Assembly: GCA_036703295.1 (NCBI GenBank)
Contig: DATNPJ010000034.1
Coordinates: 262,451-326,450 of the forward strand
Reading direction: 5' to 3'
Length of the DNA: 64,000 nucleotides
From: Coleofasciculaceae cyanobacterium
GTDB taxonomy: Bacteria > Cyanobacteriota > Vampirovibrionia > Vampirovibrionales > Vampirovibrionaceae
Positions 18,463 to 63,740 of the stretch are shown in pieces. Numbering within the stretch: position 1 is the first letter of the stretch; every line of letters starts with the position of its first letter. The position numbers and the translations under genes are program-made. Below the pieces are notes generated by a model. It was not told where the DNA came from. It ran no database searches and saw nothing but the letters and a program-made list of their open reading frames with translations.

Positions 18463-18465
18463 TGC

Positions 18466-41287: not shown

Positions 41288-42190
41288 ATGACCAATCGCC
41301 TTTCTGGAAATGTTCTGACAGAGTACGGAATTATCATTGCTCTTGTTGTGATTCTAGCCATTGGGGCAGTGACTCTGTTGGGAAGAACCACGTCTGACCT
41401 GTTTCAGAATACCGAGGACCAGCTTGCCAACCCAGCCGTAAAGGATTATATGAGCCTTCAATTCGGTTCGGCTTCCGGCAATGTTTATGATGCTTCCATG
41501 GGTAGTCGGGTGATGAGCCTCAACGCTCAGACGGGCATGCCATCGATTGGCATTGCTACCAGCAGCAGTGCTCCAGTGAATGCCACCAGTATAGATGGTA
41601 TGGTGACTAGCTCGCAGCAAACCTTGACGCTTGCCACGCAAATGGACCAACTCGCCCTGACCATTACAGACCCAAAAACAGTGCAATGGTTGGAAAAGAT
41701 TACTCAATACACGCATTATATGGCGGGTGCCGAGGGAGATTACAGTGGCGTACAGGCGCTCACTGTCAGTACCCCGGATTCCTCGACCTATACATCAGCC
41801 AATTCCCTCATGGATATCTATCGTTATCAGCAGGCGTTGGAAAAGCTTATCAATAGCCCGCCCAAAGATGCCAGCCCACAGGATATCCAGCAAATTACCA
41901 CCCTGGCGATGGATGCGTGGAATAATGCCGAGACCTTTAATGCGCAGCTTCAGCCCTATCTGAAAAATAATGGGGATATTGACAATGGGGCATTGGCAAA
42001 AAGCAACTTGGCCAACTCCAACAACGGCAAGATGACCGCCAAGAAATACGATCAACTGGTCAAATATGATACCTTGCAACAGAACGTCGTCACTGCCAGC
42101 AGTGATGGGAGCGCCACCAATACACCTGCCTTGCAATCCACTCTTCAGGATGCTGTCACGCTGAACAATACGACTCAATCGACGCCCTAA
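41288..42190 (+). CDS. giant Flp/type IVb-like prepilin (300 aa), paralog 1
   Basis: MTNRLSG|NVLTEYGIIIALVVILAIGAV has Gly-1, Glu+5, Tyr+6 and a hydrophobic helix. The body shares TGMPS, NATSIDG, YMAGAEG and PP motifs with the genes at 61535 and 62733. Confidence 0.8.
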   Translation: MTNRLSGNVLTEYGIIIALVVILAIGAVTLLGRTTSDLFQNTEDQLANPAVKDYMSLQFGSASGNVYDASMGSRVMSLNAQTGMPSIGIATSSSAPVNATSIDGMVTSSQQTLTLATQMDQLALTITDPKTVQWLEKITQYTHYMAGAEGDYSGVQALTVSTPDSSTYTSANSLMDIYRYQQALEKLINSPPKDASPQDIQQITTLAMDAWNNAETFNAQLQPYLKNNGDIDNGALAKSNLANSNNGKMTAKKYDQLVKYDTLQQNVVTASSDGSATNTPALQSTLQDAVTLNNTTQSTP

Positions 42191-42256
42191 TTCCCGGTTT
42201 TGTTTTTTGATGTAAAAAAAGAGACTGAGAGAGGGATTAGCTTCAGAAGAATCGAC

Positions 42257-42295
42257 TCAAATGGCCCATCACCGAATAAGCAATGGGCCATTTGA
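42257..42295. terminator. perfect 13-bp inverted repeat between convergent genes (probable terminator)
   Basis: TCAAATGGCCCAT-N13-ATGGGCCATTTGA. Confidence 0.65.
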
Positions 42296-42317
42296 AAGAT
42301 GGGTTTGGAGATTGGCG

Positions 42318-43409
42318 CTAGGCGCGGTCGGCTTTGACGTCCACCACCTGCTCGGAAGGCTTGTCGGCTTTGCCTGCCTTCTTGCGGTCTTCGCTGAAGT
42401 TGACCCACAGGGTCTGAATCAGCATCAGCGCGGTGGTGACCACCAGGTAAATCATAACCCCGGCAGGAATGGGGATGAAGAACAGCATCACCACGAAAAC
42501 CATGGGCATCATCTTCATCATGGGGTTGTTCATCGCGGCGGCGGCCGGATCATCCTTGGCGGCGGGCGCTGCCGGCTTCTGGCCAGCCGTCATCACCTTC
42601 TGGTAGCCCAGCGTCAGCGCGCCATAAATCAGAATCAGGACCAGGACATCGATGTTCAACTGGTTGGTGCCTTTGGCCGTGGGGACTGTTTGGATTAACA
42701 CGCCGTTCTGGTTGGTGAAGTCCACCTTCTCCAGCTCCCGGCTCTTCTCATCGACGACCAGAACCTGGGCGGATTGAATCAGGCTTCGGTAATCGTCGCT
42801 CAGACCCAGGGCGGACAGGTTCAGGGTCATCGTCACCGGGCTGCCGGGCAGAATCGGGTGAGGTTTGTAGGTGATGGCCTCGGCTTGGTTTTTTACTTCC
42901 TGTTCCTGCGTTTTGCCGTCATTCAGGACCAGGGTGACGGTTTTGTCCGCGCTGAACTTGTCATCGGACATCACGTGGAAGGTGCCGTCCAGCGGCTTGC
43001 CCGCGTGGCTTTGCAGGGTGTGCGACAGGTTGTCGATAAACATGAAATTCTCGTTGACGGTTTCCGCCAGGAAGTGCGGGCTGCTGAGCGCTCCGTACAG
43101 CCCGATAAAGATGGGCAACTGCACCAACATCGGCAGGCAGCCGGCCATCGGGTTGAAGGAGTTCTCACTATAGAACTTCATCATGACTTCCTGCATCTTT
43201 TGCGGATTGTCCTTGTGTTTCTCTTGCAGGGCTTTCAGCTTGGGTTGCAGCTCCTGCATTTTTTTCATGGAACGGGCCTGTGAAGAGTTCAAAGGCCACA
43301 AGGCGGCCCGAATGAGGACCGTCAACAGGATAATGGCCAAACCGTAGTTGCCAACCAGCTCATGGAGCAGGTTCAAGAGGTAAAACATGGCCTGGTAAAT
43401 AAAGTTCAC
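42318..43409 (-). CDS. yidC: membrane protein insertase YidC (short-N-terminus type with an internal soluble insert)
   Basis: GNYGLAII.LT.LIR.AL.PL, M..LQPKL..LQE, NPMAGCLP.L.Q.PIF..LY, P.G..IY; located in the rpmH-rnpA-yidD cluster. Confidence 0.93.
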   Translation of the reverse strand: MNFIYQAMFYLLNLLHELVGNYGLAIILLTVLIRAALWPLNSSQARSMKKMQELQPKLKALQEKHKDNPQKMQEVMMKFYSENSFNPMAGCLPMLVQLPIFIGLYGALSSPHFLAETVNENFMFIDNLSHTLQSHAGKPLDGTFHVMSDDKFSADKTVTLVLNDGKTQEQEVKNQAEAITYKPHPILPGSPVTMTLNLSALGLSDDYRSLIQSAQVLVVDEKSRELEKVDFTNQNGVLIQTVPTAKGTNQLNIDVLVLILIYGALTLGYQKVMTAGQKPAAPAAKDDPAAAAMNNPMMKMMPMVFVVMLFFIPIPAGVMIYLVVTTALMLIQTLWVNFSEDRKKAGKADKPSEQVVDVKADRA

Positions 43410-43430
43410 AGGGAAGTCTCCTGATTGGTT

Positions 43431-43679
43431 CTAAGACTGATGGACGGGAGAGGGGTGATCCGGTACGGGATCGAGCCCGCCGGGATTCAAGGGATGGCAT
43501 CGTAACAGGCGTTTGAATCCCAGCCAGGTTCCGGCCGCCACACCGTGGCGTTCGACTGCCTCATACATGTAGCTTGAACAGGTGGGGTGGAACCGGCATA
43601 GCGGGGGGAAAATCCATCGCCGCCACCCGGCACTCATCCGATAAGCCTTTATTAAAGCAAGAACAAGGGATTTCAGCAC
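43431..43679 (-). CDS. yidD: membrane protein insertion efficiency factor YidD
   Basis: CRF.PTCS.Y..EAV..HG...G.WL...RLLRCHP...GG.DPVP. Confidence 0.93.
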
Positions 43680-43701
43680 GTATTTAATGCTTTCTTAAGG
43701 A

Positions 43702-44073
43702 TTAACGGAAACAGCGTTCCATCCGGTTTTTGAGATCCTGGTAGCTGGCTGTCACGCTGCCGTTACGGGCAATGAACACCAGTGTTCGGTACCGGTAAAC
43801 CGCTTCGCGCTTTTCCGTCAGCAGAAACGTACGCACCAGCTCGCGCAGTCGCCGCTTGATGAGGTTGCGATGCGTGGAATTCTTGTGCACTTTCTTGCTG
43901 ACGATGAAACCGACCCGAGGTTCGGTCTTGGAAACGACAACGACAGATGGCCCCGCAGCTGGATTGGCTGCAAGGCCATAAAGAACAAAGCAATCATTGG
44001 CGCAAATTCGCCGTCCTGCCAGCGTCCGTTTGAAATCCCGCGGGGATTTCAGCCGATGGGCTTTCTTGAGCAT
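43702..44073 (-). CDS. rnpA: ribonuclease P protein component
   Basis: ML.K.HRL....DF, RVGF.VSKKV.K....RN.IKRRLRE. Confidence 0.92.
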   Translation of the reverse strand: MLKKAHRLKSPRDFKRTLAGRRICANDCFVLYGLAANPAAGPSVVVVSKTEPRVGFIVSKKVHKNSTHRNLIKRRLRELVRTFLLTEKREAVYRYRTLVFIARNGSVTASYQDLKNRMERCFR

Positions 44074-44098
44074 GATGCGCCGCGATCAGAAGTGATCG

Positions 44099-44233
44099 TT
44101 AGATGGCAATCTTGTGGCGGCCTTTGGCCCGGCGACGGTTGAGGGTGCGCTGCCCACCGGGGGTGGCCATTCTGGCGCGGAAACCGCTCACGCGACGTCT
44201 TTTGCGTTGTGTCCCTTCCAGGGTGCGTTTCAT
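44099..44233 (-). CDS. rpmH: 50S ribosomal protein L34 (not in ORF track)
   Basis: Hand translation gives [44 protein letters not shown]; GGAG RBS upstream. Confidence 0.97.
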
Positions 44234-44674
44234 GGGGAGATCTCCTAATTGATGAGCGCTTTTTTTCAGCAGTGAGGATCATTATATTTACCACAAAGAT
44301 CTTTTAACAGGTTGCAAAAAATCTTTATGTTAAAGCTTTGATACGCTTGCGTAACAGCGCAAGCCTCTATGCTAAACTAAATTCCCGAGGAACGGCAAGG
44401 GGAGTTTTCCTGTGTCGATCCCGGCTCCGCCCGCTGTGACGGGCATCAGCTCCAGGTAAACTCGTCAAGGGAATGGTATTTAAAGAGAGGACTGGGTCCC
44501 GAAGGTTTCCAACAAGCCTTTCGGTCAAAAATGGGCTGCTTGCGCCGGTTTTCCGTGCGCCCTAATTCTTGGGCTCGATTTTTGGAAAGGTCTTTTGGAA
44601 AGCCATTTCCGGACGCGCGACCCTGGCGGAAAAATGGTTAGAGTGACAGTATTACAAGGAACTCACGACATCTG

Positions 44675-46057
44675 ATGGCAACGCTTGTCTCACCGGTCAA
44701 TCACCCTCAAACGGATCTCGAAAGCCTCTGGCAGGCCGCCCAGGAAATTCTGAAGGGCCGCATGAGCCAGCCCAGCTTCGAGACCTGGATTGTCCCGTTG
44801 CAGATTGAAGCGGCCGATGTGAAAACCATCACTCTCCAGGCGGAAAGTGACTTTAACCGGGATTTGATCCTGAAACGCTACCGAACGGAATTGAAAGAAG
44901 CCTTTGCCGAGGTGCTGGGCCGCCCGATGGAAGTGGCCGTGGTGGTCGTGGAACCGACAACCATCCAAGCCGAGGATTCTGAAGCGGTTGAGGCCGGTGC
45001 CCGGGAACTTCCCCAGCGTGCCTGGACGCCCCGGACCACCACCAGCAACCTCAATCCGCGCTACACCTTTGAAGCCTTTGTGGTGGGCCAGCACAACCGT
45101 TTTTGTCACGCGGCGGCGCTGGCCGTGGCCGAGACTCCGGCCCAGAGCTACAATCCTTTCTTTATCTATGGTGGCGTCGGTCTGGGCAAGACCCACCTGA
45201 TGCAAGCCATCGGGCACTTCGTGCTGCAGCACCACCCTGATTTGAAAGTGCGCTACGTCACCGCCGAGCAGTTCACCAACGACATGATTAACGCGCTGGG
45301 CAAGAAGGACATGAAAGGCTTCCAGGATCGCTACCGGCGCAACGACATCCTGATTATCGACGATGTTCAGTTCCTGGAAGGCAAGACCCGCACGCAGGAA
45401 GAAGTGTTCCATACTTTTAACGCCTTGCATGAAGCCGGAAAACAGGTGATTCTGTCCAGCGACCGGCCTCCGAACCGGCTTTCTCAACTGGAAGACCGTC
45501 TGCGCAGCCGTTTTAGCTGGGGCTTGATTGCCGACATCCAGCCAGCCGACTTCGAGACCCGCTTGGCCATTCTGCAAGGCAAGGCCGAACGGGAAAAGTT
45601 CGCGGTGGGCATGGATGTGCTCTCATATATTGCCGAGACCCATCCCACCAACATCCGAGAATTGGAAGGCGCTTTGAACAAAGTGGCCGCCTACGGCATG
45701 CTCACCCGCACCCCCGTGGATCTGGTGATTGCTCAGACCGTGCTGGGCGCGCCGGTGGATACCGCCCGCATCTCGCTGGAGGAGATTCTGGACGCCGTGG
45801 CTGCCTACTATCACATGCGCACCGTGGATTTAAAAAGCCCCTCGCGGGCCAAGGATGTCTCCCACGCGCGGCAAGTGGCCATTTTTACCATCCGAACACT
45901 CACCGAGGCCAGCTTTCCCAAGATTGGCACCCTGCTGGGTGGCCGTAAGCACACCACCGTGCTGTATGCCTACGAGAAAATCCGCGAAGAAATGGAACAC
46001 CACCCCGTCCTCAAGCAGCAAATCGAGGAAATCAAGGGACGAATCAAGGCCCGTTGA
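44675..46057 (+). CDS. dnaA: chromosomal replication initiator DnaA
   Basis: LNP.YTF..FVVG..N, YNP.FIYGGVGLGKTHL, IDD.QF, SDRPP, RL.SRF.WGL, NIRELEGAL, domain IV ARQVA.F and GGRKHTTV.YA. Confidence 0.97.
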   Translation: MATLVSPVNHPQTDLESLWQAAQEILKGRMSQPSFETWIVPLQIEAADVKTITLQAESDFNRDLILKRYRTELKEAFAEVLGRPMEVAVVVVEPTTIQAEDSEAVEAGARELPQRAWTPRTTTSNLNPRYTFEAFVVGQHNRFCHAAALAVAETPAQSYNPFFIYGGVGLGKTHLMQAIGHFVLQHHPDLKVRYVTAEQFTNDMINALGKKDMKGFQDRYRRNDILIIDDVQFLEGKTRTQEEVFHTFNALHEAGKQVILSSDRPPNRLSQLEDRLRSRFSWGLIADIQPADFETRLAILQGKAEREKFAVGMDVLSYIAETHPTNIRELEGALNKVAAYGMLTRTPVDLVIAQTVLGAPVDTARISLEEILDAVAAYYHMRTVDLKSPSRAKDVSHARQVAIFTIRTLTEASFPKIGTLLGGRKHTTVLYAYEKIREEMEHHPVLKQQIEEIKGRIKAR

Positions 46058-46137
46058 AGATTTTTGAGGTGCCAGGCAATTTTCAAAATTCAGGTGCTTT
46101 GTCTGCTTGGAAATCATTAGTTTGAAAGGAATTCCAC

Positions 46138-46380
46138 ATGAACTTACCTCCTCTGTCTCCCGATCATTTTCAAATGATGAGACTTTCCCAAGGGTTTGAA
46201 GGATGGGGGAACCATCATCAAACATATTTGGTCCCGAGACTACAACCTAACTCTATTGGGTACTCGATTCCTCTTGTATTAACCTCAACGGACAAGCATG
46301 GCGCATATCAGATTTTTCCACCAGCAAGTCGTCAGCCTGGGAAACTTGAGCTTGCAGACGACCAATTCATAAAGAGATAG
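46138..46380 (+). CDS. small AT-rich hypothetical protein (80 aa)
   Basis: GAAAGGA RBS 7 nt before the ATG; no recognisable motif. Confidence 0.45.
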   Translation: MNLPPLSPDHFQMMRLSQGFEGWGNHHQTYLVPRLQPNSIGYSIPLVLTSTDKHGAYQIFPPASRQPGKLELADDQFIKR

Positions 46381-46436
46381 TTTTTAAAAACATTTTTCGC
46401 CTAAGGTTGCTTTGGTTCGTACTATCCGTACATAGG

Positions 46437-47714: not shown

Positions 47715-47796
47715 ACAATAAACACAACGTTTTGCCTGAAAGGCATAGTTTTATTTATAATCTTCAAGTTTAATATGACGGTGGAATGGATTCATC

Positions 47797-48099: not shown

Positions 48100-48179
48100 A
48101 CACCCCAATGGATTATTGCTGTGTGCACCCAGAGAATAGATATCTGCTGCCAAGTTTCGTGCGTTTTTTATAGATGCAA

Positions 48180-48205
48180 AAGAGCCTCCCATCCGGGAGG
48201 CTCTT
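48180..48205. terminator. bidirectional intrinsic terminator
   Basis: AAGAGCCTCCC-atcc-GGGAGGCTCTT (11-bp stem) between convergent small genes. Confidence 0.85.
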
Positions 48206-48241
48206 CAAAACCCTAGCGTTCTGTCCCTTGTGTCTATGAAG

Positions 48242-48397: not shown

Positions 48398-48439
48398 GTT
48401 TTAAACTCTGCCTCCGCCGTCGGGTCTCTGTAATAATGG

Positions 48440-49917: not shown

Positions 49918-50133
49918 ACTGGTGGCGGCAGCGTGATCGTGGAAGGCAATCCGGGAAGCCCAACCGTTTTTGTTCAGAAAAAGTCTGGTAGAATATTGAC
50001 GTGTTAAGAAGATATTAAAATTATTTCCGAAACTCGTTAGAACTTTTTTTTGCTCGTGGCATCATTGACTCTCAACAGCAAAACTCAGCTATCATGCCTG
50101 GGCCCGCTCGCTAACAAATATAAGGATTTTCCT

Positions 50134-52302
50134 ATGACTCTCCCTCTCCGCGTGGAACCGCATCCGATGAGAAACTGGCCGATTGCCTCCATCCCGTTGC
50201 TTCCCCGGACGGCTGTGGGTTTGATGGTGTTGGTCAGCCTGGGTTGCGGCCTGCCTGCGAGAGCCCAGTTGGTCAACGATCCGGCGGAGACGATCATTTT
50301 CAACGGCAACTCCCGCTTTGCGCCGGTGGAGAAAGACAAACTTCAGGAGAAAATCTCGGTTGAGACCGAAAAAGCCTCCGGCAAGAAGAATGAGACTGCC
50401 AAGGTCGAACCTTTGCCATCGGAACTTCAGCCGGAAATGGACGTGCAGGATTCGCAAACCACCGAAGCGCTTCCGCCGCCGCCTCCAGCTGATGATGCCT
50501 TGCAAGCCAAAGCGGTGATTGTGGATATCAACAGCAACACGCTGAACTACGACAAGGATCGCGACGTTTATGTGGCGACCGGTGCGGTGCACATGGTTAT
50601 CTCCGAGCAGAATTCCGAGCTGTATGCCGATCGGTTGGTCTTTGACCAGAACCAGGACCTAGTGATTGCGGAAGGCAGCGTGACCATCATCAAGGCAGGC
50701 CAGAAAACGCACGGCAGCTATGCCAAGATTGATCTCGTGCGTAAGTCGGCCCTCATCAACGATGCCACCACGACGGTTTCTGCGGTGCGGGTCAAGGCCA
50801 AGCAGTATTTTGTCAGTCACGACGGCATCGAGATGGAAAACGGGCGCATGATCATCAGCGGCGCCCTGTACAGAAAGATGGCCAATGCGGGTGGTTTGGG
50901 CAACCTGGGCCAGACGACCGGCAAACGGGCCAACCAGGCTCGGTTGAATCGCGCCTACTCCAAGCGGGTGGTGGATAACCGGGAGATGTTCAATCAGCTG
51001 TCCATTGATCAGCAGATGATGCTGAGAAACGTGAATGCCAAAAAATCGGACGCGGAACAGTTTGACGAGAGCAAAGGCGCCGTTTCTCACCTGAACATGA
51101 GGGTGAAGGAACTGGAAGTCGTCCGGAACGAAGATGGTTACGATGAAATCACCATGAAGCGCCCCAGCTTGTACTGGAATAAGTTCAAGCTCTTCGGCTT
51201 CCCGGATACGGATTTCTCTTACGACCAGGAAGCCCAGCAGATTCAGTACCTGGGGCCGGATATCGGTTCCAACCGCTCCTATGGCGGTCTGTATGCTGGT
51301 CCGGGTTGGGATTTTCACGTGGGGCGCGGTTCCTTGCGCGTATCTCCTGTTGCAAGTTACGGTTCTCCCGGCTTCTGGTCCTCTAACGGGAAGGACGGCA
51401 AGAATATTTCTGCCGGTCCGGGTGTGGGCGGGGTGCTGCACTTCCGGGATCCGGACACCACCCTTGATCTCGCCTACAACAGCCGCGTCGGCTCTCCGGT
51501 GATGTTTCTGGACCGGCGGATATACGGGGACAACACCCACTTCATGGCGTCGGTGAACGATTTCTACAACAACGGTCTGCTGGGCCAGCGGGAACGTCCC
51601 AACTATATCGCCCAGATTACGGATTATCGGGTGCTGAAGGAGTACAAGAACTTCCAGCTGACTTCGTTCGAGAGTCTCGGCTATGCCCGGGACAACTTTT
51701 ATCCCAACTTCAAGGATACCTACTTCGTCGAATCCAAAGGCCGCCAGCTCCAGACGCTGGGCCGGGCCCAGTTGCAGTTCCAGGTCCAGAACGTGGCGCC
51801 CTTGCTGCGTATTGGTAAATATGGCTCGGTCGGTATGCGCGCCCAGTTAATCTCTTCTGCCTATTCATCCGGGGATTTTGCTGGGCTGGCTAGGATTGGC
51901 CCGACCATGAACCTGAACCTGCTGGGCAGTCGCTTGCAGTCCTCCTTGGGGTTCACGCTCAGCCACTCCGTGGGCGAATCGCCGTTTGTCTTTGACAGCT
52001 ACTACGGTGGTTCCCAGAACTTCTCCATGAACAACCTGTTCCGGGTGAACAAATATCTCAGCGTCGGAACCTCCAACAGCTTTGCTCTGAAGCGGGACAA
52101 CGCTCGCGGCGCCCTGGCGGTGGGCAACAGCGTTTACATGATGGTGGGACCGCAGGACGTCAAGGCCACCATCGGCTACGACGTCGTGAACGGGCGCTCT
52201 TACTTCGGTATCAACTACTATCCGGGCGCTTCCAACACCGTCATCAACTTCGACAAATTGCGCATGATGCAGCCTTCGGCCTATGCGCCCCCGCCCATCT
52301 AG
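50134..52302 (+). CDS. LptD/OstA-like outer-membrane LPS assembly protein
   Basis: N-terminal OstA-like jellyroll pattern (A.G.V.M....L.AD...FD...D...AEG.V), then an aromatic/Gly-rich beta-strand region. Confidence 0.55.
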   Translation: MTLPLRVEPHPMRNWPIASIPLLPRTAVGLMVLVSLGCGLPARAQLVNDPAETIIFNGNSRFAPVEKDKLQEKISVETEKASGKKNETAKVEPLPSELQPEMDVQDSQTTEALPPPPPADDALQAKAVIVDINSNTLNYDKDRDVYVATGAVHMVISEQNSELYADRLVFDQNQDLVIAEGSVTIIKAGQKTHGSYAKIDLVRKSALINDATTTVSAVRVKAKQYFVSHDGIEMENGRMIISGALYRKMANAGGLGNLGQTTGKRANQARLNRAYSKRVVDNREMFNQLSIDQQMMLRNVNAKKSDAEQFDESKGAVSHLNMRVKELEVVRNEDGYDEITMKRPSLYWNKFKLFGFPDTDFSYDQEAQQIQYLGPDIGSNRSYGGLYAGPGWDFHVGRGSLRVSPVASYGSPGFWSSNGKDGKNISAGPGVGGVLHFRDPDTTLDLAYNSRVGSPVMFLDRRIYGDNTHFMASVNDFYNNGLLGQRERPNYIAQITDYRVLKEYKNFQLTSFESLGYARDNFYPNFKDTYFVESKGRQLQTLGRAQLQFQVQNVAPLLRIGKYGSVGMRAQLISSAYSSGDFAGLARIGPTMNLNLLGSRLQSSLGFTLSHSVGESPFVFDSYYGGSQNFSMNNLFRVNKYLSVGTSNSFALKRDNARGALAVGNSVYMMVGPQDVKATIGYDVVNGRSYFGINYYPGASNTVINFDKLRMMQPSAYAPPPI

Positions 52303-55252: not shown

Positions 55253-56587
55253 ATGAGTGTTAACGTGCCACAACTGACGCTCTTTCCCCTGTACCGGGGT
55301 GGTCCTCAGGTGCAGGGCAGAAGCGGTGTCAGCGCAAATTCTGCCTTCTACACCCAGGCCAACGGCTTTTCTCCCGCCTATGCCGTGAACATTCCGCCCA
55401 CCACCAGCCGGGATTTTTCAACCAACTACCTGACCCTGGGTAACAGCGGCAGCAAGCGTATCGAGCAGCGCGCCACCAGCCAAATCCGAGATTTCGATCG
55501 GCCGGTCTGGCTGGGTGATATTCCGGGCAGTATCCGGCAGGCTCCGGTGCCTGCGGTGGCGCCGGTCATCCCGAATATTTACCAGGCGATGGCCGACCTG
55601 CTGGCCGTGACTGATGCCCATTACGACGATTTGATGGCTCAGCCTTCGTTCCGGATTCCGACCATCGGGTTGGGACTGAAAGTGACCACGGATGGGATGG
55701 GTGGGGTGGATACGATCGAGATCAGTCCCAGCTCCCGCAAGGCCAACCCGCAACTTGGCGCGACCAGCCCTGATTTCCCGCTGCAAAATCGGACGGATGT
55801 AACTTCCGGGGCTATGGTCGGCGCGGACACTGGGGTGGGACTGAGCATAAAACGGCCTGTGAAACCGACCTCCACCATCGATAACCCGCCTCAGCCTATT
55901 AATGCTCACCAGTCCGGTTTGGGAGATCTCTCAAATCCTTTCCAAAAAGACTTGGGCCGCAATGCAGGTATCTTTAATCTTCAGCGCCCCGGCGCTCTCC
56001 CACCGCAACCACCCGTGAATTTCCGGGAATTGAACCCCATTCAGCAGCGCCTGTTTCAATTGCAGCCCCCCGAGTTGGGTCTGGCAGTGTCCGGAGCCGG
56101 GGCCGCCGTGGCGGCGGACCAGGCGCGCCAGATTGCCACGGTGCAGGCCCGCCTGGAAGTAAACACCAGCACCCGCACCAAGGATAACATCGCCAATCTG
56201 GCTAGCGGCAGCAAACAAACGGAAAGCTACGCCGCCGCCTTTCGTCCGCAGAACCTAGACGGTCGCATTCCCATGGCACCGTCGCTGCCCAATGCTTTTG
56301 CCAATGCGGGCGGGGCCAGCACGGGCTTTGGTGGCAACGAGGGCTTTAACATGGGCGGTGCCGTGTCAGATGCCATGAACCGCAAGGGCCGGGGCGGCTA
56401 CATCCCGTTCCAGATGCAAGGACAGGATGCGGGCACTTCCGGCAGCGGTACCGGGGCCAGCCCATTCTTCAGCGGCGGCAATCAACAAGGCGGCATGGGT
56501 TTTGGAGCCGGCCAAGGTGGCATGAGCTTCGGCAGCCAGGGCGAGCAACCCCGCCAGCGCCGCAGACCTTTGGCCTTTACGGCTTGA
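55253..56587 (+). CDS. Pro/Gly/Gln-rich, probably largely disordered hypothetical protein (444 aa)
   Basis: Long ORF with host-like codon usage; low-complexity Gly-rich C-terminus ending RRRPLAFTA. Confidence 0.75.
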   Translation: MSVNVPQLTLFPLYRGGPQVQGRSGVSANSAFYTQANGFSPAYAVNIPPTTSRDFSTNYLTLGNSGSKRIEQRATSQIRDFDRPVWLGDIPGSIRQAPVPAVAPVIPNIYQAMADLLAVTDAHYDDLMAQPSFRIPTIGLGLKVTTDGMGGVDTIEISPSSRKANPQLGATSPDFPLQNRTDVTSGAMVGADTGVGLSIKRPVKPTSTIDNPPQPINAHQSGLGDLSNPFQKDLGRNAGIFNLQRPGALPPQPPVNFRELNPIQQRLFQLQPPELGLAVSGAGAAVAADQARQIATVQARLEVNTSTRTKDNIANLASGSKQTESYAAAFRPQNLDGRIPMAPSLPNAFANAGGASTGFGGNEGFNMGGAVSDAMNRKGRGGYIPFQMQGQDAGTSGSGTGASPFFSGGNQQGGMGFGAGQGGMSFGSQGEQPRQRRRPLAFTA

Positions 56588-57418: not shown

Positions 57419-57500
57419 TGGTACGACAAGACTCGCATTTGATTGTAATCCAAGCGGGGAAACTTGTCTCGCAACCGCTCGTCGTTTGCTATAGTTCTGT

Positions 57501-59969
57501 TTGGGCCATCAGCGCCCTCCTCAAGAAGAGAAGAAGGAGTCTTTGGTGAAGCGGTTGAAGAAAGCGGCCTGGATGGGCTTGGCCTCCCTGCTGATAGTCG
57601 TGACGATGCTTGCCAACAGTGGTTCGGCCCAGTTGGCCATTCGGTTGGTTGCTGCTGACGGCACCACTTCCGACGTAACCGCCAAGAACATGCCCCGGGG
57701 AGAAGAATCGCTGGTGCTTTACGACCAGGCGTTCGGCAAGACCACCCGGACCAATCCCTTCGGCGTGGAAGTGATTGCCCTGCCTGCGGAGAACAAAGTC
57801 GAGAACGGGCGGGCCTACAAGGTGGTCAAGGTCACCAGCGTCTGGCAATGCGAGACCGGCACCGAGCAGACCGAATGCGGCGACGCGGAGATTCCCAGAA
57901 ACGGGGTGGTGCTTTCCGCCACCGGCAGCAAGCGGGACTTGCTGAAAGACTACAAGCCCGGAGATACCCTGGTTCTGCAAGAAGACTGGTTCCATCGCAA
58001 GCAGGCCCCCATCAACGTGGTTGATCCCTCGCCGGAAACCAACCCTGCGGGTTCCGGCTTTCCGGGATTCCGGGCTTCCAACCAGCTCATTATTTATGAT
58101 GCCGGTTACGGGCGCCCCACCACCGGCACCAACGAGTTCGGTTTTGAAGTGACCGTTGAGAACGGGCTGGTGACGGAACAGGAAGGCTCCGATTCCGCGA
58201 TTCCTGCTGCAAACGGGTTTGTGGTCAGCGGGCATGGACGCAGCCGCAGTTGGTTGATTGCCAACGCGCCCCTCGGGGCCAAACTGGAGTACGACCCGGC
58301 CACACAGACCTTGACCTCGACGATTGATTTCAATACCTATGCCTATCAGTTTGATAAACGTTGGTACGAAGGCCCGTGCAGCGGCAAGCTGCTGTCCGGC
58401 AACCAGGATCCCGGCTGCGATGAGATTCGCAAGAGCCACGATCAGGCCCTGCGCTTGTTCCATGACGGTCGCGAAGCATTGGCGGCCGCAACCATGAACG
58501 ATGCTCTGGAGCGTCTAAATCGCCGGGTCTGGCTGGGTTATACCGCTTTTTCAGGTGATACGGTCCGGGGGGCTTGGCATCGCCCGGTTGAAAAGAACCG
58601 CGTCGCCATCGGGCAAACCCTGGACACCCTGAAGGAAGCCGGTCTGAACAGCGTGTTCCTGGAGACTTTCTTCCATGGCTATACCATTTTTCCTTCGCAA
58701 ACCTTTGCCAACTACGGCATGGTGAACGAGAATCCTAAATTTGCCGGGGTGGATCTCCTGAAGCTTTGGGTGGAGGAGGCCCATAAGCGGGGTATGAAGG
58801 TGCATGTCTGGTTTCAGACCTTCTATGGCGGCACCAAGGCTTATATGCCGCCTGGGCCGATTCTGACGAAGCATCCCGAATGGGCCAACGTGCAGTTTTC
58901 CGCGCTCAAGCCCGAGCCTGCCCCTGAACAGAACGGGGAGAATGGGATTAACGGCAAGGCGGCTCATCGCAACGGCGCTAAACCGTCCGGTGCCCCTATC
59001 CCTTCTTCTGCCAGTAAAAAGACAGCGCACGGCGCTGCCAAGAAGTGGCATGTCCCTCCCTCCGTGAACGCCGGGGCATTGGCCAACGGAACGGCCGAAC
59101 CGGCTCCCCGGCCCAAGCTGGTAACGCCGGATCAACCGATGCCCTCCAATCTGGAACTGGGCGGTTATTTCCTGGATCCGGCAAACCCGGCTGTGCAGGA
59201 TTTCCTGGCGAAATTGTCTCTGGAGATTGTCAGCCGTTACGATGTAGATGGCATTCAACTGGATTACATCCGGTACCCGGCCAGCTTTCCCCCGGAGCGC
59301 TTCAGTTACCGGCGTACCACCTGGGGCTATACCAAAATCGCCCGAAACGCCTTCAAATCGCGTTACGGGGTAGATCCGGCCGAAGTGGATCCCAAGGATC
59401 CTCGGGCCGAAGAGCTGTGGACCGCCTGGAACAACTTCAAGACCGAGCAGGTGACGCACTTCGTGGAACGGGTGACCAAGGCTATCCGGGCGCAGCGTCC
59501 CGGTATTAAAATCTCGGCGGCCGTTTTTCCGGATGCCGAAGCGGCCCTGCTGATGAAGCACCAGGATTGGCAGTGCTGGGCACGAAATGGCTGGGTGGAT
59601 TTCTTCGCCCCCATGACGCTGACCAGCGCCATCAAGGTGGTGGAACACGATACCCGCTACATGGTGAACGCGACCAATGGCAAGGTGCCGGTGTATTCTG
59701 GGATTTTTGGGCCGTTTAACGACAACAGCGCCGAGCACATCCTGCGGCAGATCAACACCGCGAAAACCGCCGGCGCCAGCGGCTACGTGTTGTTTGATAC
59801 CGCCCATCTCTCCGCACGCATGCTGGAGGCCCTGAAGGCCATCCAGAGCCCCCAGCCGATCGTGACGACACCGGAGCCGGTCGCTTCTCCGTCAGCCCCC
59901 GTTCCCTCATCCGAGCAACCGGCCAAGCAGAAAAAGCGCCACTGGTGGCAACGGAGAGGAAAAATTTAG
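57501..59969 (+). CDS. GHL10 (family 10 glycosylhydrolase-like, DUF187) protein with duplicated N-terminal beta domains
   Basis: RG.W, L...G.N.VF.E.F..G..I.PS, DLL...VEEAH.RG.KVH.WF, .LDPANP.VQ, Y.VDGIQLDYIRYP, S.AVFP, QDW..W...G.VD...PM. Confidence 0.82.
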   Translation: MGHQRPPQEEKKESLVKRLKKAAWMGLASLLIVVTMLANSGSAQLAIRLVAADGTTSDVTAKNMPRGEESLVLYDQAFGKTTRTNPFGVEVIALPAENKVENGRAYKVVKVTSVWQCETGTEQTECGDAEIPRNGVVLSATGSKRDLLKDYKPGDTLVLQEDWFHRKQAPINVVDPSPETNPAGSGFPGFRASNQLIIYDAGYGRPTTGTNEFGFEVTVENGLVTEQEGSDSAIPAANGFVVSGHGRSRSWLIANAPLGAKLEYDPATQTLTSTIDFNTYAYQFDKRWYEGPCSGKLLSGNQDPGCDEIRKSHDQALRLFHDGREALAAATMNDALERLNRRVWLGYTAFSGDTVRGAWHRPVEKNRVAIGQTLDTLKEAGLNSVFLETFFHGYTIFPSQTFANYGMVNENPKFAGVDLLKLWVEEAHKRGMKVHVWFQTFYGGTKAYMPPGPILTKHPEWANVQFSALKPEPAPEQNGENGINGKAAHRNGAKPSGAPIPSSASKKTAHGAAKKWHVPPSVNAGALANGTAEPAPRPKLVTPDQPMPSNLELGGYFLDPANPAVQDFLAKLSLEIVSRYDVDGIQLDYIRYPASFPPERFSYRRTTWGYTKIARNAFKSRYGVDPAEVDPKDPRAEELWTAWNNFKTEQVTHFVERVTKAIRAQRPGIKISAAVFPDAEAALLMKHQDWQCWARNGWVDFFAPMTLTSAIKVVEHDTRYMVNATNGKVPVYSGIFGPFNDNSAEHILRQINTAKTAGASGYVLFDTAHLSARMLEALKAIQSPQPIVTTPEPVASPSAPVPSSEQPAKQKKRHWWQRRGKI

Positions 59970-59980
59970 TGTCCTTGACC

Positions 59981-60241
59981 TCAGGCGATTAAGAAGAGCC
60001 CTGAATCTTGTAGCTTCTCTTCGACCTGTAAGAGGCGTGCTTTGCTGCCCGGGAAGTAAAAGGGAATGCCCGACTGTAACAGCTTGGCCACCAAGCCGAG
60101 TTGGTTCTCTGGAGTGGGGACTAGCCTTACCAGGGGAAGGTCATCCTGAGAAACCTGGACAGCAGGGCCAAAGTTGTGTATAAATTTGCACTTTTCCGGG
60201 CTATAAGGGAAATAAATGGGTGGCAAATATCTGGTAGACAT
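59981..60241 (-). CDS. small AT-rich hypothetical protein (86 aa)
   Basis: AGGAAGGAG RBS before the ATG; no recognisable motif. Confidence 0.55.
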   Translation of the reverse strand: MSTRYLPPIYFPYSPEKCKFIHNFGPAVQVSQDDLPLVRLVPTPENQLGLVAKLLQSGIPFYFPGSKARLLQVEEKLQDSGLFLIA

Positions 60242-60449
60242 AACTCTCCTTCCTTTTTATTAAAATTTTTATTGATAAGGATTTATGGAATCTAGCAAAA
60301 GGGTCGCGGGAATTCAATTTCGAATGATGAGTGACTCCTCTCTTTGCAAAACATGAGTCGTTCGTTATAATACGCATATGCTTTAGGCTATTCATTTGTG
60401 CAATAGTCGAGCTTACTGGCATCACAGGCCAAAGGATAGAGAGAGACAA

Positions 60450-60764
60450 GTGAATTATCAATTGTGTCGGTGGTACGATCCTTACCCCCGGCTGGCATTC
60501 GCCTTGAAGTTGCTATACCTGGCTCCGGGGAGCCTTCAGAACAGGGCTGCCCAGGAGCTGCAACGTTTTCTGGGGGAAGACTGGGGAAGCGCCGCGACGG
60601 AAAAGGCCCGGCATGCAGCCGAGACAAACCCCAAGGGCAAGCGCTGGTACGATGAGGATTTCGATACGGCCCAGGCGGTCGAACTCATCAAAATAAGCCC
60701 CGAGTCTATGAAAAGCCGGGCAGCCGATACGCTGCTGGAGATCCTGATCGCCGATTGCGCCTAG
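60450..60764 (+). CDS. hypothetical protein with duplicated RWYD motif
   Basis: GTG start after a purine-rich RBS; RWYDPYPRLAFAL and RWYDEDFDTAQAV; terminator downstream. Confidence 0.72.
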   Translation: MNYQLCRWYDPYPRLAFALKLLYLAPGSLQNRAAQELQRFLGEDWGSAATEKARHAAETNPKGKRWYDEDFDTAQAVELIKISPESMKSRAADTLLEILIADCA

Positions 60765-60798
60765 GTGCCATGATCGATCGGATCAGTGTTTGGGATCC

Positions 60799-60834
60799 CC
60801 CGCGATCTGAAAACCCATGCAGATCGCGGGTTTT
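60799..60834 (+). terminator. intrinsic terminator
   Basis: CCCGCGATCTG / CAGATCGCGGG 11-bp stem followed by TTTT. Confidence 0.8.
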
Positions 60835-61087
60835 CGGATCGCGAAGTGTAAATGTTTCTTCAAGATCGGCTGTTTTCACATGACAGAGGAATATCAGCAA
60901 ATATAGAATTGCTTAAACTCTAACTCTCTATCCTTTGTGCCTATGCATGCCTCCGGCCTGCAAGGCTTTTTTTTTGAGGGGTTTTTTTTAGAGGCCCAGA
61001 AGAAAGATGCCAGCCGAAGAGGCCGGTACTGACTGCTCAGTTTAAAGGCTGTTGGTCCTGATTGGCTTCAAGTTCGTTCACATATCC

Positions 61088-61114
61088 TTCAGAAATTCAC
61101 TGTTCCTTCGAAAA
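61088..61114 (+). promoter_or_regulatory. variant sigma-28-like promoter motif
   Basis: TTCAGAAA-N11-TTCGAAAA, 38 nt before ATG 61152; same geometry as the motifs at 61463 and 62670. Confidence 0.45.
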
Positions 61115-61151
61115 CATGGGTAGCGGATCTGAAGTGATAGGATTGTTGTGA

Positions 61152-61379
61152 ATGCGGCTTGCGCAAGATTCAAAAAACACCACATTACTGCAATACGGCT
61201 TGATCATCTGCCTTTTTGCCTTGCTGACCATGGGTGCTTTGGTGTTGCTCGAATTTGCTGCTCCGGATGCGTCAGGCGGAATCCGGCAGTCCCGGAGTGT
61301 TTTGATTCGGTTAGCCAACATGGATTCCCTCACCCGGGACCATTCCCCTGTTCCTGAACCCTCGGTGAGTGCCGAGTAA
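61152..61379 (+). CDS. short degenerate Flp-like pilin (75 aa)
   Basis: N|TTLLQYGLIICLFALLTMGAL is Flp-like, but Gly-1 reads Asn and Glu+5 reads Gln; first of three tandem pilin-like genes. Confidence 0.55.
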   Translation: MRLAQDSKNTTLLQYGLIICLFALLTMGALVLLEFAAPDASGGIRQSRSVLIRLANMDSLTRDHSPVPEPSVSAE

Positions 61380-61462
61380 GAGGCCTCACCGAGGGTTCAG
61401 CAATAGCTGCTGTGCGATGTGCGCCGAGTGGATTACAAGATGTAACAATCGGTCCAAGGCGC

Positions 61463-61489
61463 TTCAGAAATTTTCCGAATGACCGAAGA
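61463..61489 (+). promoter_or_regulatory. variant sigma-28-like promoter motif
   Basis: TTCAGAAA-N11-ACCGAAGA, 46 nt before ATG 61535. Confidence 0.45.
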
Positions 61490-61534
61490 GAAATACGAAG
61501 TTAAGGATTAGGATCGAAAGAGGCCAAGAAACCA

Positions 61535-62548
61535 ATGATGATTTTTGTTTGCCGAGGCAGCGCGTTGACCGAATATGGCCTGATTCTAGGCTTGGTGGTG
61601 CTGCTCGGTGTGGCTGGCTTACAGGTCACCGGGGGGTCCGTCAGTTCTCTGCTGGGTGGCTTTGAAAAAAATGACACTACCGTTGCCAAAATGATGAGTT
61701 TGAATTTTGGATCGGGCAGCACCACCACGAGCTCACAGGGAGGTCCAAATGGTTCCGTTTCCTTGTCGGGTTCTGGTTATTATACATTCGTGACGGATCC
61801 CGCTACCGGGATGCCGACTCTGCAGATGACGGACTCGGGTTCCGGCGCCGTATCCAACGCGACCAGCGTGGATGGCCAGCAATGGAACGTCTTGGGCGGC
61901 ATGCGCTTGGCCGGTTCCCTGGAACAAATGGCCTCCTCGCAGACCGATCCTGCGGTTTCCCAGTATTTACAAAAGATGGCAACCCTGAGTTATTATCTGG
62001 GTGGCGCCGAGGGGGAACTCGATGGTGTTCCCGGCCTGGAACTGGATGATAATTACGGCAATTTGGATGCTTATCTGGATATTGAAAAGTATAAGGGACA
62101 ATTGAACGCCCTGTTGAGTAACCCTCCGGCGGGGATGAGCCAGCAGACATACCGGGAGGCGATGCCATTGGCTGCGGATGCCTATAATATTGCGCAGGCT
62201 TATTATCAACATTTGGAGCCGGTGGTTGCCAAGCATCCCGATCAGAATTTTTATCTTCCTCAGTACGAAAATCTGGATTTTGGTACAGGGAAAGTAAGCG
62301 AGGCTTTGACGTCACCCACTTCCGAGTTTACCTATCAACCGACGTTCCCACCCAGTGGAGAGTCATTTGCTCAGGTGATGTCGCTACAGGAATTGAAAAC
62401 GGCTTCGACACAGATGTTGAAAGATAACAAGGTGACTTCGGATCCGGTGGTCAGCACCCTGACGGACGCAACCCAACTGGATCAGACTTCAATGAGCGGG
62501 TCCGGTACAACGGTTCCTCCCCAGATGGCTACCACGGCTGCCCCATGA
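61535..62548 (+). CDS. giant Flp/type IVb-like prepilin (337 aa), paralog 2
   Basis: MMIFVCRG|SALTEYGLILGLVVLLGVAGL, followed by about 300 aa that align with the paralogs at 62733 and 41288. Confidence 0.82.
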   Translation: MMIFVCRGSALTEYGLILGLVVLLGVAGLQVTGGSVSSLLGGFEKNDTTVAKMMSLNFGSGSTTTSSQGGPNGSVSLSGSGYYTFVTDPATGMPTLQMTDSGSGAVSNATSVDGQQWNVLGGMRLAGSLEQMASSQTDPAVSQYLQKMATLSYYLGGAEGELDGVPGLELDDNYGNLDAYLDIEKYKGQLNALLSNPPAGMSQQTYREAMPLAADAYNIAQAYYQHLEPVVAKHPDQNFYLPQYENLDFGTGKVSEALTSPTSEFTYQPTFPPSGESFAQVMSLQELKTASTQMLKDNKVTSDPVVSTLTDATQLDQTSMSGSGTTVPPQMATTAAP

Positions 62549-62669
62549 TCCGTGATTCTGGCATAACTGGATTTACCAACGTTAGCACCGATGAGGCTAG
62601 TATTTTGGCCGCACAGAGAGGCTCTTTTTATTCGGTTTAACGAAATGTTAAATTTTTGCGATGCCGGGA

Positions 62670-62696
62670 TTCAGAGATTGCCGGGATGGTCGATAA
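62670..62696 (+). promoter_or_regulatory. variant sigma-28-like promoter motif
   Basis: TTCAGAGA-N11-GTCGATAA, 37 nt before TTG 62733. Confidence 0.5.
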
Positions 62697-62732
62697 CCAA
62701 AAAACGCAGCAATCAGAGAAGTGGGATAGCGC

Positions 62733-63740
62733 TTGAAATTATTGCCGACTACAGAAGTTCCAGAACGCGGTAACGTGTTGACCGAATATGGCCTGATTCT
62801 GGGCTTGGTGGTGTTGCTGAGCATTGCTGGCTTGCAAGTGACTGGTGGCTCCGTCAGTTCCTTGCTGGGCGGTTTTAACCGAAACGAATCCTCGGTTTCC
62901 CGGCTGGTGAGCCTGAAATTTGGCGATGGCAACACGGCCACCGCCGGGCAGAGCATCACCAACGGGCCGGTGAGCTTGAACGGGGCCGGTTATTATACGT
63001 TTGAGATCGATCCGGCGACCGGCCTGCCTTCCTTGAAGCTGACGGACGGCAATACGGGCGCGGTCTCCAACGCGACCAGCGTGGACGGCCAGCAGTGGAA
63101 TGTCTTAGGGCAGTTTCATCTGGCGGACAGCCTGGATAAACTGGCCGCCGCCGAGACGAACCCCGCCACCGCGGCATATTTAAAAAAATTGGCGAACATT
63201 TCCTACTATCTGGGTGCCGCTGAGGGTGAGGCGGATGGTATTCCCGGTTTGGAACTGGGGGATAACTACGGCAAGTTGCATGCTGCCCAGGATATCGTCT
63301 ACTATCAGTCACAACTGACCCAATTGATCAATAATCCCCCTGCCGGAATGGATCGGGCAACCTTGACGCAGGCAACGGCGCTGACTGCCGATGTTTACAA
63401 CATTGCTCAGGGCTATAACGCGGTGCTGACACCCATGCTTAAATCTGGAACGCCACAAGACTTTATTTTTCCGTGGGTTGCTGATGGTTTGGGCTTAGGC
63501 CAGCCGGGTGCCGCACTGAATGTGCCCCTGGCCGATGTCACCTACTTCCCGCCAGATTCGTCTTCATCGACGGCTAATGTGACAATCGAGCAGGTTTTTA
63601 CGGTGAGTCAAATTCAGGGCCTTGCCCAGAATATTCTCAGCGGCTATCAGGTCTCGACCGAACCGGTGAGAGCCACCATGACAGGTGCGACCCAGCTGAA
63701 TCAAGCTTCAACAGGAGCCGCGCCAACGGCTGCTCCGTAG
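62733..63740 (+). CDS. giant Flp/type IVb-like prepilin (335 aa), paralog 3
   Basis: ...ERG|NVLTEYGLILGLVVLLSIAGL; tandem paralog of 61535 with near-identical DNA blocks (ttgaccgaatatggcctgattct; tccaacgcgaccagcgtgga). Confidence 0.82.
   Translation: MKLLPTTEVPERGNVLTEYGLILGLVVLLSIAGLQVTGGSVSSLLGGFNRNESSVSRLVSLKFGDGNTATAGQSITNGPVSLNGAGYYTFEIDPATGLPSLKLTDGNTGAVSNATSVDGQQWNVLGQFHLADSLDKLAAAETNPATAAYLKKLANISYYLGAAEGEADGIPGLELGDNYGKLHAAQDIVYYQSQLTQLINNPPAGMDRATLTQATALTADVYNIAQGYNAVLTPMLKSGTPQDFIFPWVADGLGLGQPGAALNVPLADVTYFPPDSSSSTANVTIEQVFTVSQIQGLAQNILSGYQVSTEPVRATMTGATQLNQASTGAAPTAAP

Follow-up and report, generated by a model that had tools for sequence, protein, structure and literature searches.

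The whole stretch of DNA analyzed in this work (hereafter the window, 64,000 nucleotides of contig DATNPJ010000034.1 from a Vampirovibrionaceae genome deposited as Coleofasciculaceae cyanobacterium) harbors three genes, here named copies 1, 2, and 3, whose products start like Flp pilins, the small subunits of type IVc (Tad) pili, and are five to six times the size of a normal Flp prepilin. A first-pass annotation, made from the sequence alone, had reported three oversized open reading frames (ORFs) with an intact Flp prepilin signature; all three were confirmed on the forward strand. Their positions, and those of the N-terminal modules of copies 1 and 2, are the following (HMM, hidden Markov model; pLDDT, predicted local distance difference test; pTM, predicted template modelling score):

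41288–42190 (+): copy 1, a long Flp-type prepilin of 300 residues, member of the "short" subfamily (287–312 residues); ORF and translation, family HMM (E 9.1e-89), AlphaFold2 model (pLDDT 81.9, pTM 0.69).
41288–41443 (+): leader (M1–G7) and Flp module (about residues 8–52) of copy 1, with G/NVLTEY and the hydrophobic alpha1; N-terminal HMM, model helix 9–46, weak Pfam Flp_Fap match at residues 12–43.
61535–62548 (+): copy 2, a long Flp-type prepilin of 337 residues, member of the "long" subfamily and first gene of a tandem pair; family HMM (E 9.6e-114), AlphaFold2 model (pLDDT 81, pTM 0.71).
61535–61696 (+): leader (M1–G8) and Flp module (about residues 9–54) of copy 2; profile positions 11–50 match the pilins 8u1k and 8u2b, model helix 10–44.
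62733–63740 (+): copy 3, a long Flp-type prepilin of 335 residues, started by TTG, which follows copy 2 in the tandem pair; family HMM (E 1.6e-105).

The prepilin signatures read MTNRLSG/NVLTEYGIIIALVVILAIGAV in copy 1 (leader of 7 residues), MMIFVCRG/SALTEYGLILGLVVLLGVAG in copy 2 (8 residues), and LKLLPTTEVPERG/NVLTEYGLILGLVVLLSIAG in copy 3 (13 residues), and in all three ORFs Gly-1, Glu+5, and Tyr+6 are followed by about 20 hydrophobic residues. Scanned in six frames with the regular expression G.{4}E[YFWH] and the requirement of a following hydrophobic stretch, the window gave only copies 1–3; an HMM of the family N-terminus recognized them with E values from 3.5e-19 to 1.8e-17, the next of the 1,229 window ORFs being at 0.087. 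The mature proteins (293–329 residues, 31–35 kDa) are acidic (isoelectric point 4.2–4.3) and cysteine-free. Copies 2 and 3 share 51% identity, whereas copy 1 shares 30–32% with either; the tandem pair shows no clear sign of recent gene conversion, the synonymous divergence (dS) being 0.80 in the Flp segment and saturated elsewhere. The motifs listed in the first-pass annotation as common to the three proteins (SL.FG, TG[ML]P[ST], NATS[IV]DG, TDP/TNP, Y[LM].[GA]AEG, L...PP, and [SA]T[LM]..A..L) are real: they correspond to invariant or near-invariant columns of the three-way alignment, and most of them are kept across 84 family members.

A word-indexed homolog search gave 6–11 proteins; it was an exhaustive HMMER search over 1.84 billion cluster representatives (clusters at 50% identity) that revealed the family, with 270 clusters at E ≤ 1e-3, of which 131 pass E ≤ 1e-10 and 92 pass E ≤ 1e-30. 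Nearly all the members are 280–370 residues long and share the same N-terminal signature; those with a name come from metagenome-assembled genomes (MAGs) of Vampirovibrio or Melainabacteria ("Candidatus Melainabacteria bacterium", "Vampirovibrio sp."). We found no description of the family in the literature searched, where it is known only from automatic labels, i.e., "Flp pilus assembly pilin Flp" (several entries of the Joint Genome Institute, JGI) or "hypothetical protein". Judging from their sequences, the three genes appear to encode type IVc (Flp-type) prepilins of a family so far found only in Vampirovibrio/Melainabacteria MAGs.

In the alignment of 84 sequences, the signature residues are nearly absolute (Gly-1 in 81/84, Glu+5 in 84/84, and Tyr+6 in 81/84) and the body of the protein is marked by its own conserved positions: G114 in 84/84, T308 in 83/84, P198 in 81/84, N108 and S111 in 80/84 each, and E159 and A312 in 77/84 each. 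Within the body, conservation is highest in N-x-(T/S)-S-x-(D/E)-G, a motif that spans residues 98–104 of copy 1, 108–114 of copy 2, and 113–119 of copy 3 (about 41579–41599, 61856–61876, and 63069–63089 of the window). An N-x-(S/T) sequon at positions 108–110 is present in 78 of the 84 members; this segment could be a glycosylation site, or a contact between subunits or with a partner.

Clustering separates the "short" subfamily (13 representatives), with copy 1, from the "long" one (50 representatives), with copies 2 and 3. Copy 1 and copies 2/3 thus belong to two old subfamilies, each with orthologs elsewhere. Two old and separately conserved subfamilies are not what a fast-turnover repertoire would give; this weakens the "interchangeable repertoire" of the first-pass annotation and suggests that the subfamilies have distinct, non-redundant partners or form alternative tips, instead of being quickly reshuffled. 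In the syntenic locus L007, the order of genes is the same as in the window (GHL10, two small ORFs, an ORF of 75 residues, the ortholog of copy 2, the ortholog of copy 3, and a class II aminoacyl-tRNA synthetase gene), and the orthologs of copy 2 (P0003) and copy 3 (P0002) are 74–75% and 82% identical, respectively, to their window counterparts. Since L007 keeps this order, the tandem pair is older than the split from the L007 genome. Tandem arrays occur also in other lineages, with four members in L003/L010 and two each in L004, L006, L013, and L016.

Some of these related loci carry further proteins close to the family genes. In L004, directly upstream of a bona fide family member, an ORF (1259–2158) joins a Flp-like N-terminus (G/LSEYSIIGALIVLI...) to a different body that also looks helical (family HMM E 4.3e-5), a hint that several body types have received a Flp head in this lineage. 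The arrays of three to four genes are preceded by a conserved protein of 230–232 residues (L010, 8061–8759) having no Pfam match, with PilZ-like RxxxR and N-x-S-x-x-G strings; a Gly/Tyr/Asn-rich protein of 432–436 residues, also without a Pfam match, lies further upstream (L010, 6267–7577), and small coiled-coil ORFs follow the array. The L010 arrangement is found also in the syntenic JGI contig of P0014. Prepilins of the type IVa/type II secretion style, with heads G/FTLAE and G/YSMTE, are encoded a few kb from family genes in L006 (10459–11055, −) and L014 (2272–2751, −); therefore, those genomes also use a processing pathway of the PilD/PulO type.

The nature of the N-terminus was checked against known pilins. 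Positions 11–50 of the family profile match entire 45-residue mature Tad pilins (8u1k, E 1.7e-4; 8u2b, E 4.9e-4). The Pfam family Flp_Fap (PF04964) is matched at E ≤ 1 by 32 of 68 members (best E 8.6e-6), all three window copies lying below its gathering score (copy 1 has 13.6 bits versus a cut-off of 32.2, and copies 2 and 3 gave no match), while TadE (PF07811) is matched at the same threshold neither by any of the 68 nor by copies 1–3. This combination of results implies that the N-terminus corresponds to a whole Flp pilin and not to the head of a TadE-type minor pilin.

The remainder of the protein was modelled with AlphaFold2 for copies 1 and 2, from alignments of 68–69 sequences, and the two models, both of good overall confidence, have the same architecture. 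The alpha1 helix (about residues 10–45) is followed by a low-confidence Ser/Thr/Gly-rich linker and by a beta-hairpin (GYY.F..DP.TG.P.L); then come the NATS(V/I)DG segment, also at low confidence, four long helices in which TDP, YYLGGAEG, and NPP are found, a variable patch, two C-terminal helices with T..A..L, and a short Ser/Thr/Ala/Pro tail. The body, of about 200 residues, is a helical bundle with only two short hairpins in the models, that is, a predicted fold unlike the beta-rich one of TadE/F/G. Minor pilins of the TadE/F/G and KilL/M/N sets carry globular domains built of beta strands (PMC12075869), and the modelled body would therefore not be of their kind. No significant relative of the body was retrieved by Foldseek (best E 0.39 and 1.4 in the PDB, 0.12 in BFVD), and none was found by sequence in Pfam, NCBIfam, or a PDB profile search, so that the earlier impression of a C-terminal domain belonging to no named family is borne out by all these resources. 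The AlphaFold and Foldseek comparison with TadE/TadG, suggested in the first-pass annotation, thus gave a helical body and no TadE/TadG match, and membership in TadE/TadG was rejected on the basis of the empty PF07811 search (0/68), the helical models, and the lack of a Foldseek match to any pilin. The matches of the body to DUF7541 (E 0.065) and to the type III secretion needle NF011854 (E 0.14) are at chance level, and the weak flagellin, FliS, and needle look-alikes were regarded as generic helical-bundle noise. According to these data, the family consists of a Flp pilin module fused to a helical domain without detectable relatives.

The variable patch, which had been described as unrelated between copies and proposed to set surface or prey specificity, was located as follows:

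41960–42046 (+): variable patch of copy 1, shrunk to a short loop (about residues 225–253); alignment gaps and secondary structure of the model.
62234–62383 (+): variable patch of copy 2 (residues 234–283), between the four-helix scaffold and the C-terminal helices; top family entropy and gaps.
63447–63608 (+): variable patch of copy 3 (residues 239–292); comparison with the ortholog.

The highest entropy of the family falls in the patch (3.2–3.4 bits at copy 2 positions 241–280, with 26–44% gaps); a second variable region, not noticed in the first-pass annotation, is the Ser/Thr/Gly-rich linker after the Flp module (copy 2 residues 41–80, 3.0–3.3 bits, gaps up to 30%). Between paralogs, patch identity is 35% for copy 2 versus copy 3 and 17–19% for copy 1 versus either, with 10–26 gap columns, against scaffold identities of 59% and 33–34%, respectively. 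The existence of a variable patch is therefore upheld, but "unrelated" is too strong because the patches of copies 2 and 3 still align at 35% identity.

Evolutionary rates were compared with the L007 orthologs, i.e., with one genome and two gene pairs, using a crude pairwise ratio of nonsynonymous to synonymous divergence (omega) averaged over sites. For copy 2, the patch is 49% identical to that of the ortholog (nonsynonymous divergence, dN, 0.40) and the scaffold 80% (dN 0.11); for copy 3, the corresponding values are 61% (dN 0.35) and 88% (dN 0.07). The patch is thus the fastest-evolving structured part of the protein, at 3–5 times the scaffold rate in terms of dN. All parts are under purifying selection (omega 0.07–0.34), with values of 0.33–0.34 for the patch and 0.09–0.19 for the scaffold. 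Positive selection is not demonstrated by a patch omega of only about 0.33, which fits relaxed constraint equally well as diversifying selection on a few sites. It is quite possible, if on balance doubtful, that the patch has no specificity function at all, being a tolerant loop under relaxed constraint in paralogs that are old redundant duplicates; this would be compatible with any of the readings given below. An omega well under 1 points in this direction, as do the equal variability of the linker and the loss of most of the patch in the copy 1 subfamily, where the modelled fold is unchanged despite the reduction to a short loop. However, the patch of copy 2 is modelled with confidence (pLDDT mostly >90, with short strands), as expected of a structured element and not of a floppy linker, and site averaging in a comparison of this size could conceal a diversifying subset of residues.

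The machine to which such pilins could belong lies upstream in the same window:

12025–19458 (+): Tad (type IVc pilus) operon, in the order rcpC/cpaB, secretin rcpA/cpaC, tadZ/cpaE, tadA/cpaF, tadB, tadC; Pfam matches, two Vampirovibrio MAGs, and the gene list of Vampirovibrio chlorellavorus.

The TadZ/CpaE protein of the window carries a receiver domain. On the basis of Pfam, the operon includes no pilin, minor-pilin (tadE/F/G), or prepilin-peptidase (tadV) gene. The same six genes, with their flanks and also without pilins, were found in two Vampirovibrio MAGs from NCBI (L019, 10001–17396; L020, 10001–17382), whose CpaB is only 46–47% identical to that of the window, the closest CpaB homologs being named Vampirovibrio sp. 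The conservation of a pilin-less operon in two further MAGs implies that the pilins must be encoded elsewhere; copies 1–3 are the best candidates for these missing pilins, and we infer a link between the two by which the operon is their presumed assembly machine. In V. chlorellavorus (Soo et al. 2015, Table S3), the same cluster is present (cpaB, cpaC, cpaE, cpaF, and tadB are given), together with a second tad cluster having a TadE-like gene, one PulO-type peptidase, and four dispersed genes annotated in IMG as "pilin Flp", including the tandem pair 2600257323/4; this dispersed arrangement matches that of the window. The literature searched on Vampirovibrio Tad or Flp pili gave nothing beyond this gene list.

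The syntenic flanks of the tad genes encode an M55 peptidase, UbiE, GGDEF, TPR, SDF, and DUF2227 proteins, an aldehyde dehydrogenase, a class II aminoacyl-tRNA synthetase, and a metallophosphoesterase. Upstream of cpaB, a conserved non-coding block (11869–11927, +; TTCATTCGGAyAGAGGAT ... GGTATGCT ... GAGGAAG) is common to the window, L019, and L020; it has no match in Rfam and may be a regulator site or a leader. The interval between the aminoacyl-tRNA synthetase gene and cpaB (10868–12025) has about 0.9 kb of extra sequence in the window, being only about 240–275 bp in L019 and L020, and a minus-strand ORF in this extra sequence (10688–11740) gave a weak calpain-like match (E 0.007).

Sigma-28-like motifs had been noticed in front of all three pilin genes. 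Only copy 3 matches the consensus TAAA-N15-GCCGATAA with no more than 3 mismatches; the candidate elements are the following:

62670–62696 (+): candidate sigma-28/FliA-like promoter of copy 3, with −10 GTCGATAA and a poor −35; consensus match with 3 mismatches, in a block conserved with the ortholog.
41241–41248 (+): GCCGATTC, a tentative, weak sigma-28-like −10 of copy 1, 65 nucleotides upstream of the Gly codon.

The earlier claim is thus supported only in part, by the candidate of copy 3 and, more weakly, by that of copy 1; copy 2 has no sigma-28 match upstream, its conserved block being TTCAGAAAT.TTCCGA...CGAAGAGAAATAC, and no convincing TAAA −35 element precedes any of the three genes. 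The copy 3 ortholog has a perfect GCCGATAA in the same conserved footprint, the sequence further upstream being deleted or diverged. Across the family, nCCGATAn occurs at −60 to −100 in 7 of 20 genes versus about 1.3 expected, the genes not being independent of each other. The best sigma-28 match of the window (11930–11956, 1 mismatch) is at the tad operon, next to the non-coding block described above; it was rejected as evidence since L019 and L020 do not conserve it.

The window is chromosomal DNA of a Vampirovibrio-like bacterium (Vampirovibrionia/Melainabacteria), from a non-photosynthetic branch of the cyanobacteria, and the rest of it is mostly housekeeping. Copy 1 lies between rsmB and yidC, in a segment (37–46 kb) with the order def, fmt, rsmB, copy 1, yidC, rnpA, rpmH, dnaA, and its context is the same in two JGI metagenome contigs (L001 and L002; 3300035168 and 3300035074). 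The replication-origin set yidC-rnpA-rpmH/dnaA (42318–46057) thus adjoins copy 1, and the GC skew, in 2-kb windows, is positive throughout with no change of sign. Other genes of the window include accD/accA and those for an M23 peptidase, a GHL10 glycosidase-like protein, and pyruvate kinase. Two proteins of 750 (50050–52302, +) and 444 (55253–56587, +) residues, located among the acc, radical-SAM, and GHL10 genes, have no Pfam match at E ≤ 0.1; Rfam and tRNA scans of the window found nothing. One small gene adjoins the tandem pair:

61152–61379 (+): conserved ORF of 75 residues that immediately precedes copy 2; its N-terminus (MRLAQDSKNTTLLQYGLIICLFALLTMGALVLL) resembles a degenerate Flp head, lacking Gly-1 and having Gln in place of Glu+5; N-terminal HMM E 0.087.

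This ORF has the same length and 75% identity in L007 and L009, with an omega of 0.36 (0.24 in the hydrophobic part), and more distant loci lack it. It is possibly connected with the tandem pair.

Of the observations reported so far, those on the sequences themselves, on membership in the family, on the predicted fold, on the uneven rates, and on the lack of pilins in the tad operon are direct; what copies 1–3 do is something that we infer from them. Our proposal, which we advance tentatively and at somewhat less than even confidence, is that copies 1–3 are low-copy tip or priming pilins displaying the helical domain. The near-absolute conservation of Gly-1, Glu+5, and Tyr+6 argues for processing and for insertion into a type IV filament via the Flp helix. 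As a first step, a prepilin peptidase would cut after Gly-1, as the conservation of the motif suggests. N-methylated termini are not expected for Flp-type pilins, since TadV-type peptidases have no methyltransferase domain. The Flp helix, with its invariant Glu+5, would then dock the protein into the filament of the pilin-less tad operon. Tad filaments are about 50 Å wide, with a rise of 4.9 Å (PMC10710030), and the RcpC/secretin conduit fits a filament about 5 nm across (PMC12307814). According to our volume estimate, if each subunit bore a domain of some 30 kDa, with a volume of about 36,000 cubic angstroms, the fibre would at this rise be about 11–13 nm thick, too wide for the conduit and the secretin; low-copy priming or tip pilins are therefore favored. 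In the proposed scheme, the bulky domain would go ahead of the fibre, the flexible linker letting it thread the RcpC/secretin conduit, and, once displayed at the end of the pilus, it would act as an adhesin or contact sensor, with the fast-evolving patch as the probable exposed, ligand-facing surface. Interchangeable Tad tips are known from Myxococcus, and tip complexes with variable domains from the Tad pili of predators (PMC12075869); by analogy, the tip proposal would apply the Myxococcus concept to a different protein family.

Several points weigh against it. The first-pass annotation had proposed that the three proteins serve the pilin-less Tad machine; the operon is indeed without pilins and conserved in two MAGs, but the related loci, some 190 kb in total, have no family gene beside tad genes, and in the window 22 kb separate the operon from the closest copy. 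Contig scans by exact peptide pattern yielded only 2 loci from genomes and 6 from metagenomes. A search of the 64-kb window for a prepilin peptidase (Peptidase_A24) gave no match, and in V. chlorellavorus the presence of two tad clusters makes the choice of the machine ambiguous. All the members keep Glu+5, which is dispensable in the very first tip subunit, and a long flexible linker is unusual among known tip pilins. The steric argument, moreover, uses the dimensions of Pseudomonas and Caulobacter, not those of the RcpC/secretin of this organism. Finally, no canonical short Flp was found in the window or in the related loci (about 190 kb), so that the copies could themselves be the major subunits.

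This last reading, in which copies 1–3 would be major or co-major pilins with a Flp-helix core and a large outer domain on every subunit, as in Archaea, the paralogs being alternative or co-polymerising and the patch the outer face, seems to us quite unlikely, although it accounts for a good part of the data. The N-terminus is like that of major Flp pilins rather than TadE/F minor pilins, Glu+5 is strictly kept (84/84), no short Flp lies in the window, beside the conserved tad operon, or in the related loci, and several paralogs with their own promoters recall flp1/flp2 or the flagellin and archaellin sets. Tad packing (rise 4.9 Å) is that of archaeal type IV pili, which bear globular domains (PMC10710030); "thick bundles" of pili have been described in V. 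chlorellavorus (PMC4451040), and a filament of the width estimated above would be similar to archaella. On the other side, such a fibre would have to pass a conduit of about 5 nm (PMC12307814) in a diderm organism whose operon has a canonical secretin; the disordered, length-variable linker is unlike the tight packing of alpha1 and domain in known major pilins; and a short Flp may exist outside the window, four genes labelled "Flp" being listed for V. chlorellavorus.

It is likewise improbable that the Flp module serves for targeting or anchoring only, the protein, cleaved or not, staying in the inner membrane by its alpha1 helix or being a Tad cargo (effector or adhesin) released or displayed. 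In favor of this reading, Flp-pilin N-termini are fused to unrelated cargo in ARC/CD38-like polymorphic toxins (PMC12605009), the Flp-like head on a different body in L004 suggests modularity, a long flexible linker suits tethered cargo, and the genes are unlinked to tad loci. Against it, our searches gave no match to toxins, enzymes, or known effector domains, the conserved helical bundle of the body looks structural and has no recognised catalytic motif, no conserved immunity-like gene is adjacent (the 75-residue ORF lies upstream of copy 2 only, in close relatives only), and strict Glu+5 and Tyr+6 fit incorporation into a filament better than mere anchoring.

Flp pilins are described as helices, 40–60 residues long when mature and without a C-terminal domain (PMC10710030), from prepilins of 50–80 residues (PMC12075869). 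This rule is broken by a coherent, conserved family in which a full Flp module is followed by about 250 residues of a domain whose fold has no match; the family bears on the gain or loss of pilin outer domains (the gene-fusion question, PMC10710030). It also represents the only candidate pilins for the conserved pilin-less Tad operon of Vampirovibrionia. To this lineage belongs the algal predator V. chlorellavorus, to whose attachment apparatus no specific proteins have been assigned so far; if the proteins of the family are tips or subunits, they are obvious targets for studies of prey or surface recognition in the lineage. A bolder scenario, which we consider rather unlikely, is that Vampirovibrionia equip a pilin-less Tad machine with the first Flp pilins having a C-terminal domain, making either a thick decorated fibre or exchangeable tips, in which the sequon (possibly glycosylated) and the patch would provide prey or surface recognition. 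If true, it would overturn the rule of Tad pilins without a C-terminal domain and give a molecular handle on prey attachment in Vampirovibrio.

Large pilins with additional domains are known from other systems. TcpB of Vibrio cholerae and CofB of enterotoxigenic Escherichia coli are large type IVb minor pilins acting as low-copy, tip-located initiators that prime or cap pili. They are like the window family in joining an N-terminus similar to that of the major pilin to a flexible linker and extra C-terminal domains (PMC5207764); they differ in their type IVb class, in the beta-rich C-terminal domains, and in being encoded in pilus operons, and no similarity of sequence or structure to the window family was detected. 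Archaeal type IV pilins and archaellins share with it a class III signal peptide, a continuous alpha1, a Tad-like packing (rise of about 5 Å), and a sizeable outer domain, which in Archaea is often N-glycosylated at N-x-S/T, the sequon kept by 78/84 members of the family. They are different in having beta-sandwich/Ig-like domains placed directly on alpha1 and no outer-membrane secretin, and no homology was detected. The Flp-pilin polymorphic toxins (PMC12605009) have, like the window family, a Flp module plus an unrelated C-terminal domain; theirs are recognisable ARC/CD38-like toxin domains, and none is detectable in the window family.

The Tip complexes of TadE/TadF/TadG and KilL/M/N (PMC12075869) are likewise formed by large proteins with a prepilin motif and variable modular domains on a Tad pilus; predators have several paralogous sets of them, proposed to set target specificity, and this is a further likeness. 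The Tip pilins, however, have TadE-type N-termini, a beta-stranded fold, and many disulfides, and form heterotrimers of three co-encoded families, often in tad/kil loci, whereas the window family has no TadE match (0/68), an all-alpha predicted body, and, in the window copies, no cysteine; it is a single family, whose genes stand either singly or as two to four paralogs in tandem, away from the tad genes. From the Flp/Fap major pilins (PF04964; Caulobacter crescentus PilA, 8u1k; Pseudomonas aeruginosa Flp, 8u2b), the window proteins differ in their mature length of 293–329 residues, about 250 of which form a linker and helical domain, in scoring below the Pfam gathering threshold, and in having genes outside, and not beside, the tad operon. 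With the same pilins they share the short leader, the G/xxxxEY signature with Glu+5 and Tyr+6, the alpha1 helix, a Tad machine in the genome, and the alignment of their first 45 or so mature residues with the whole mature Flp.

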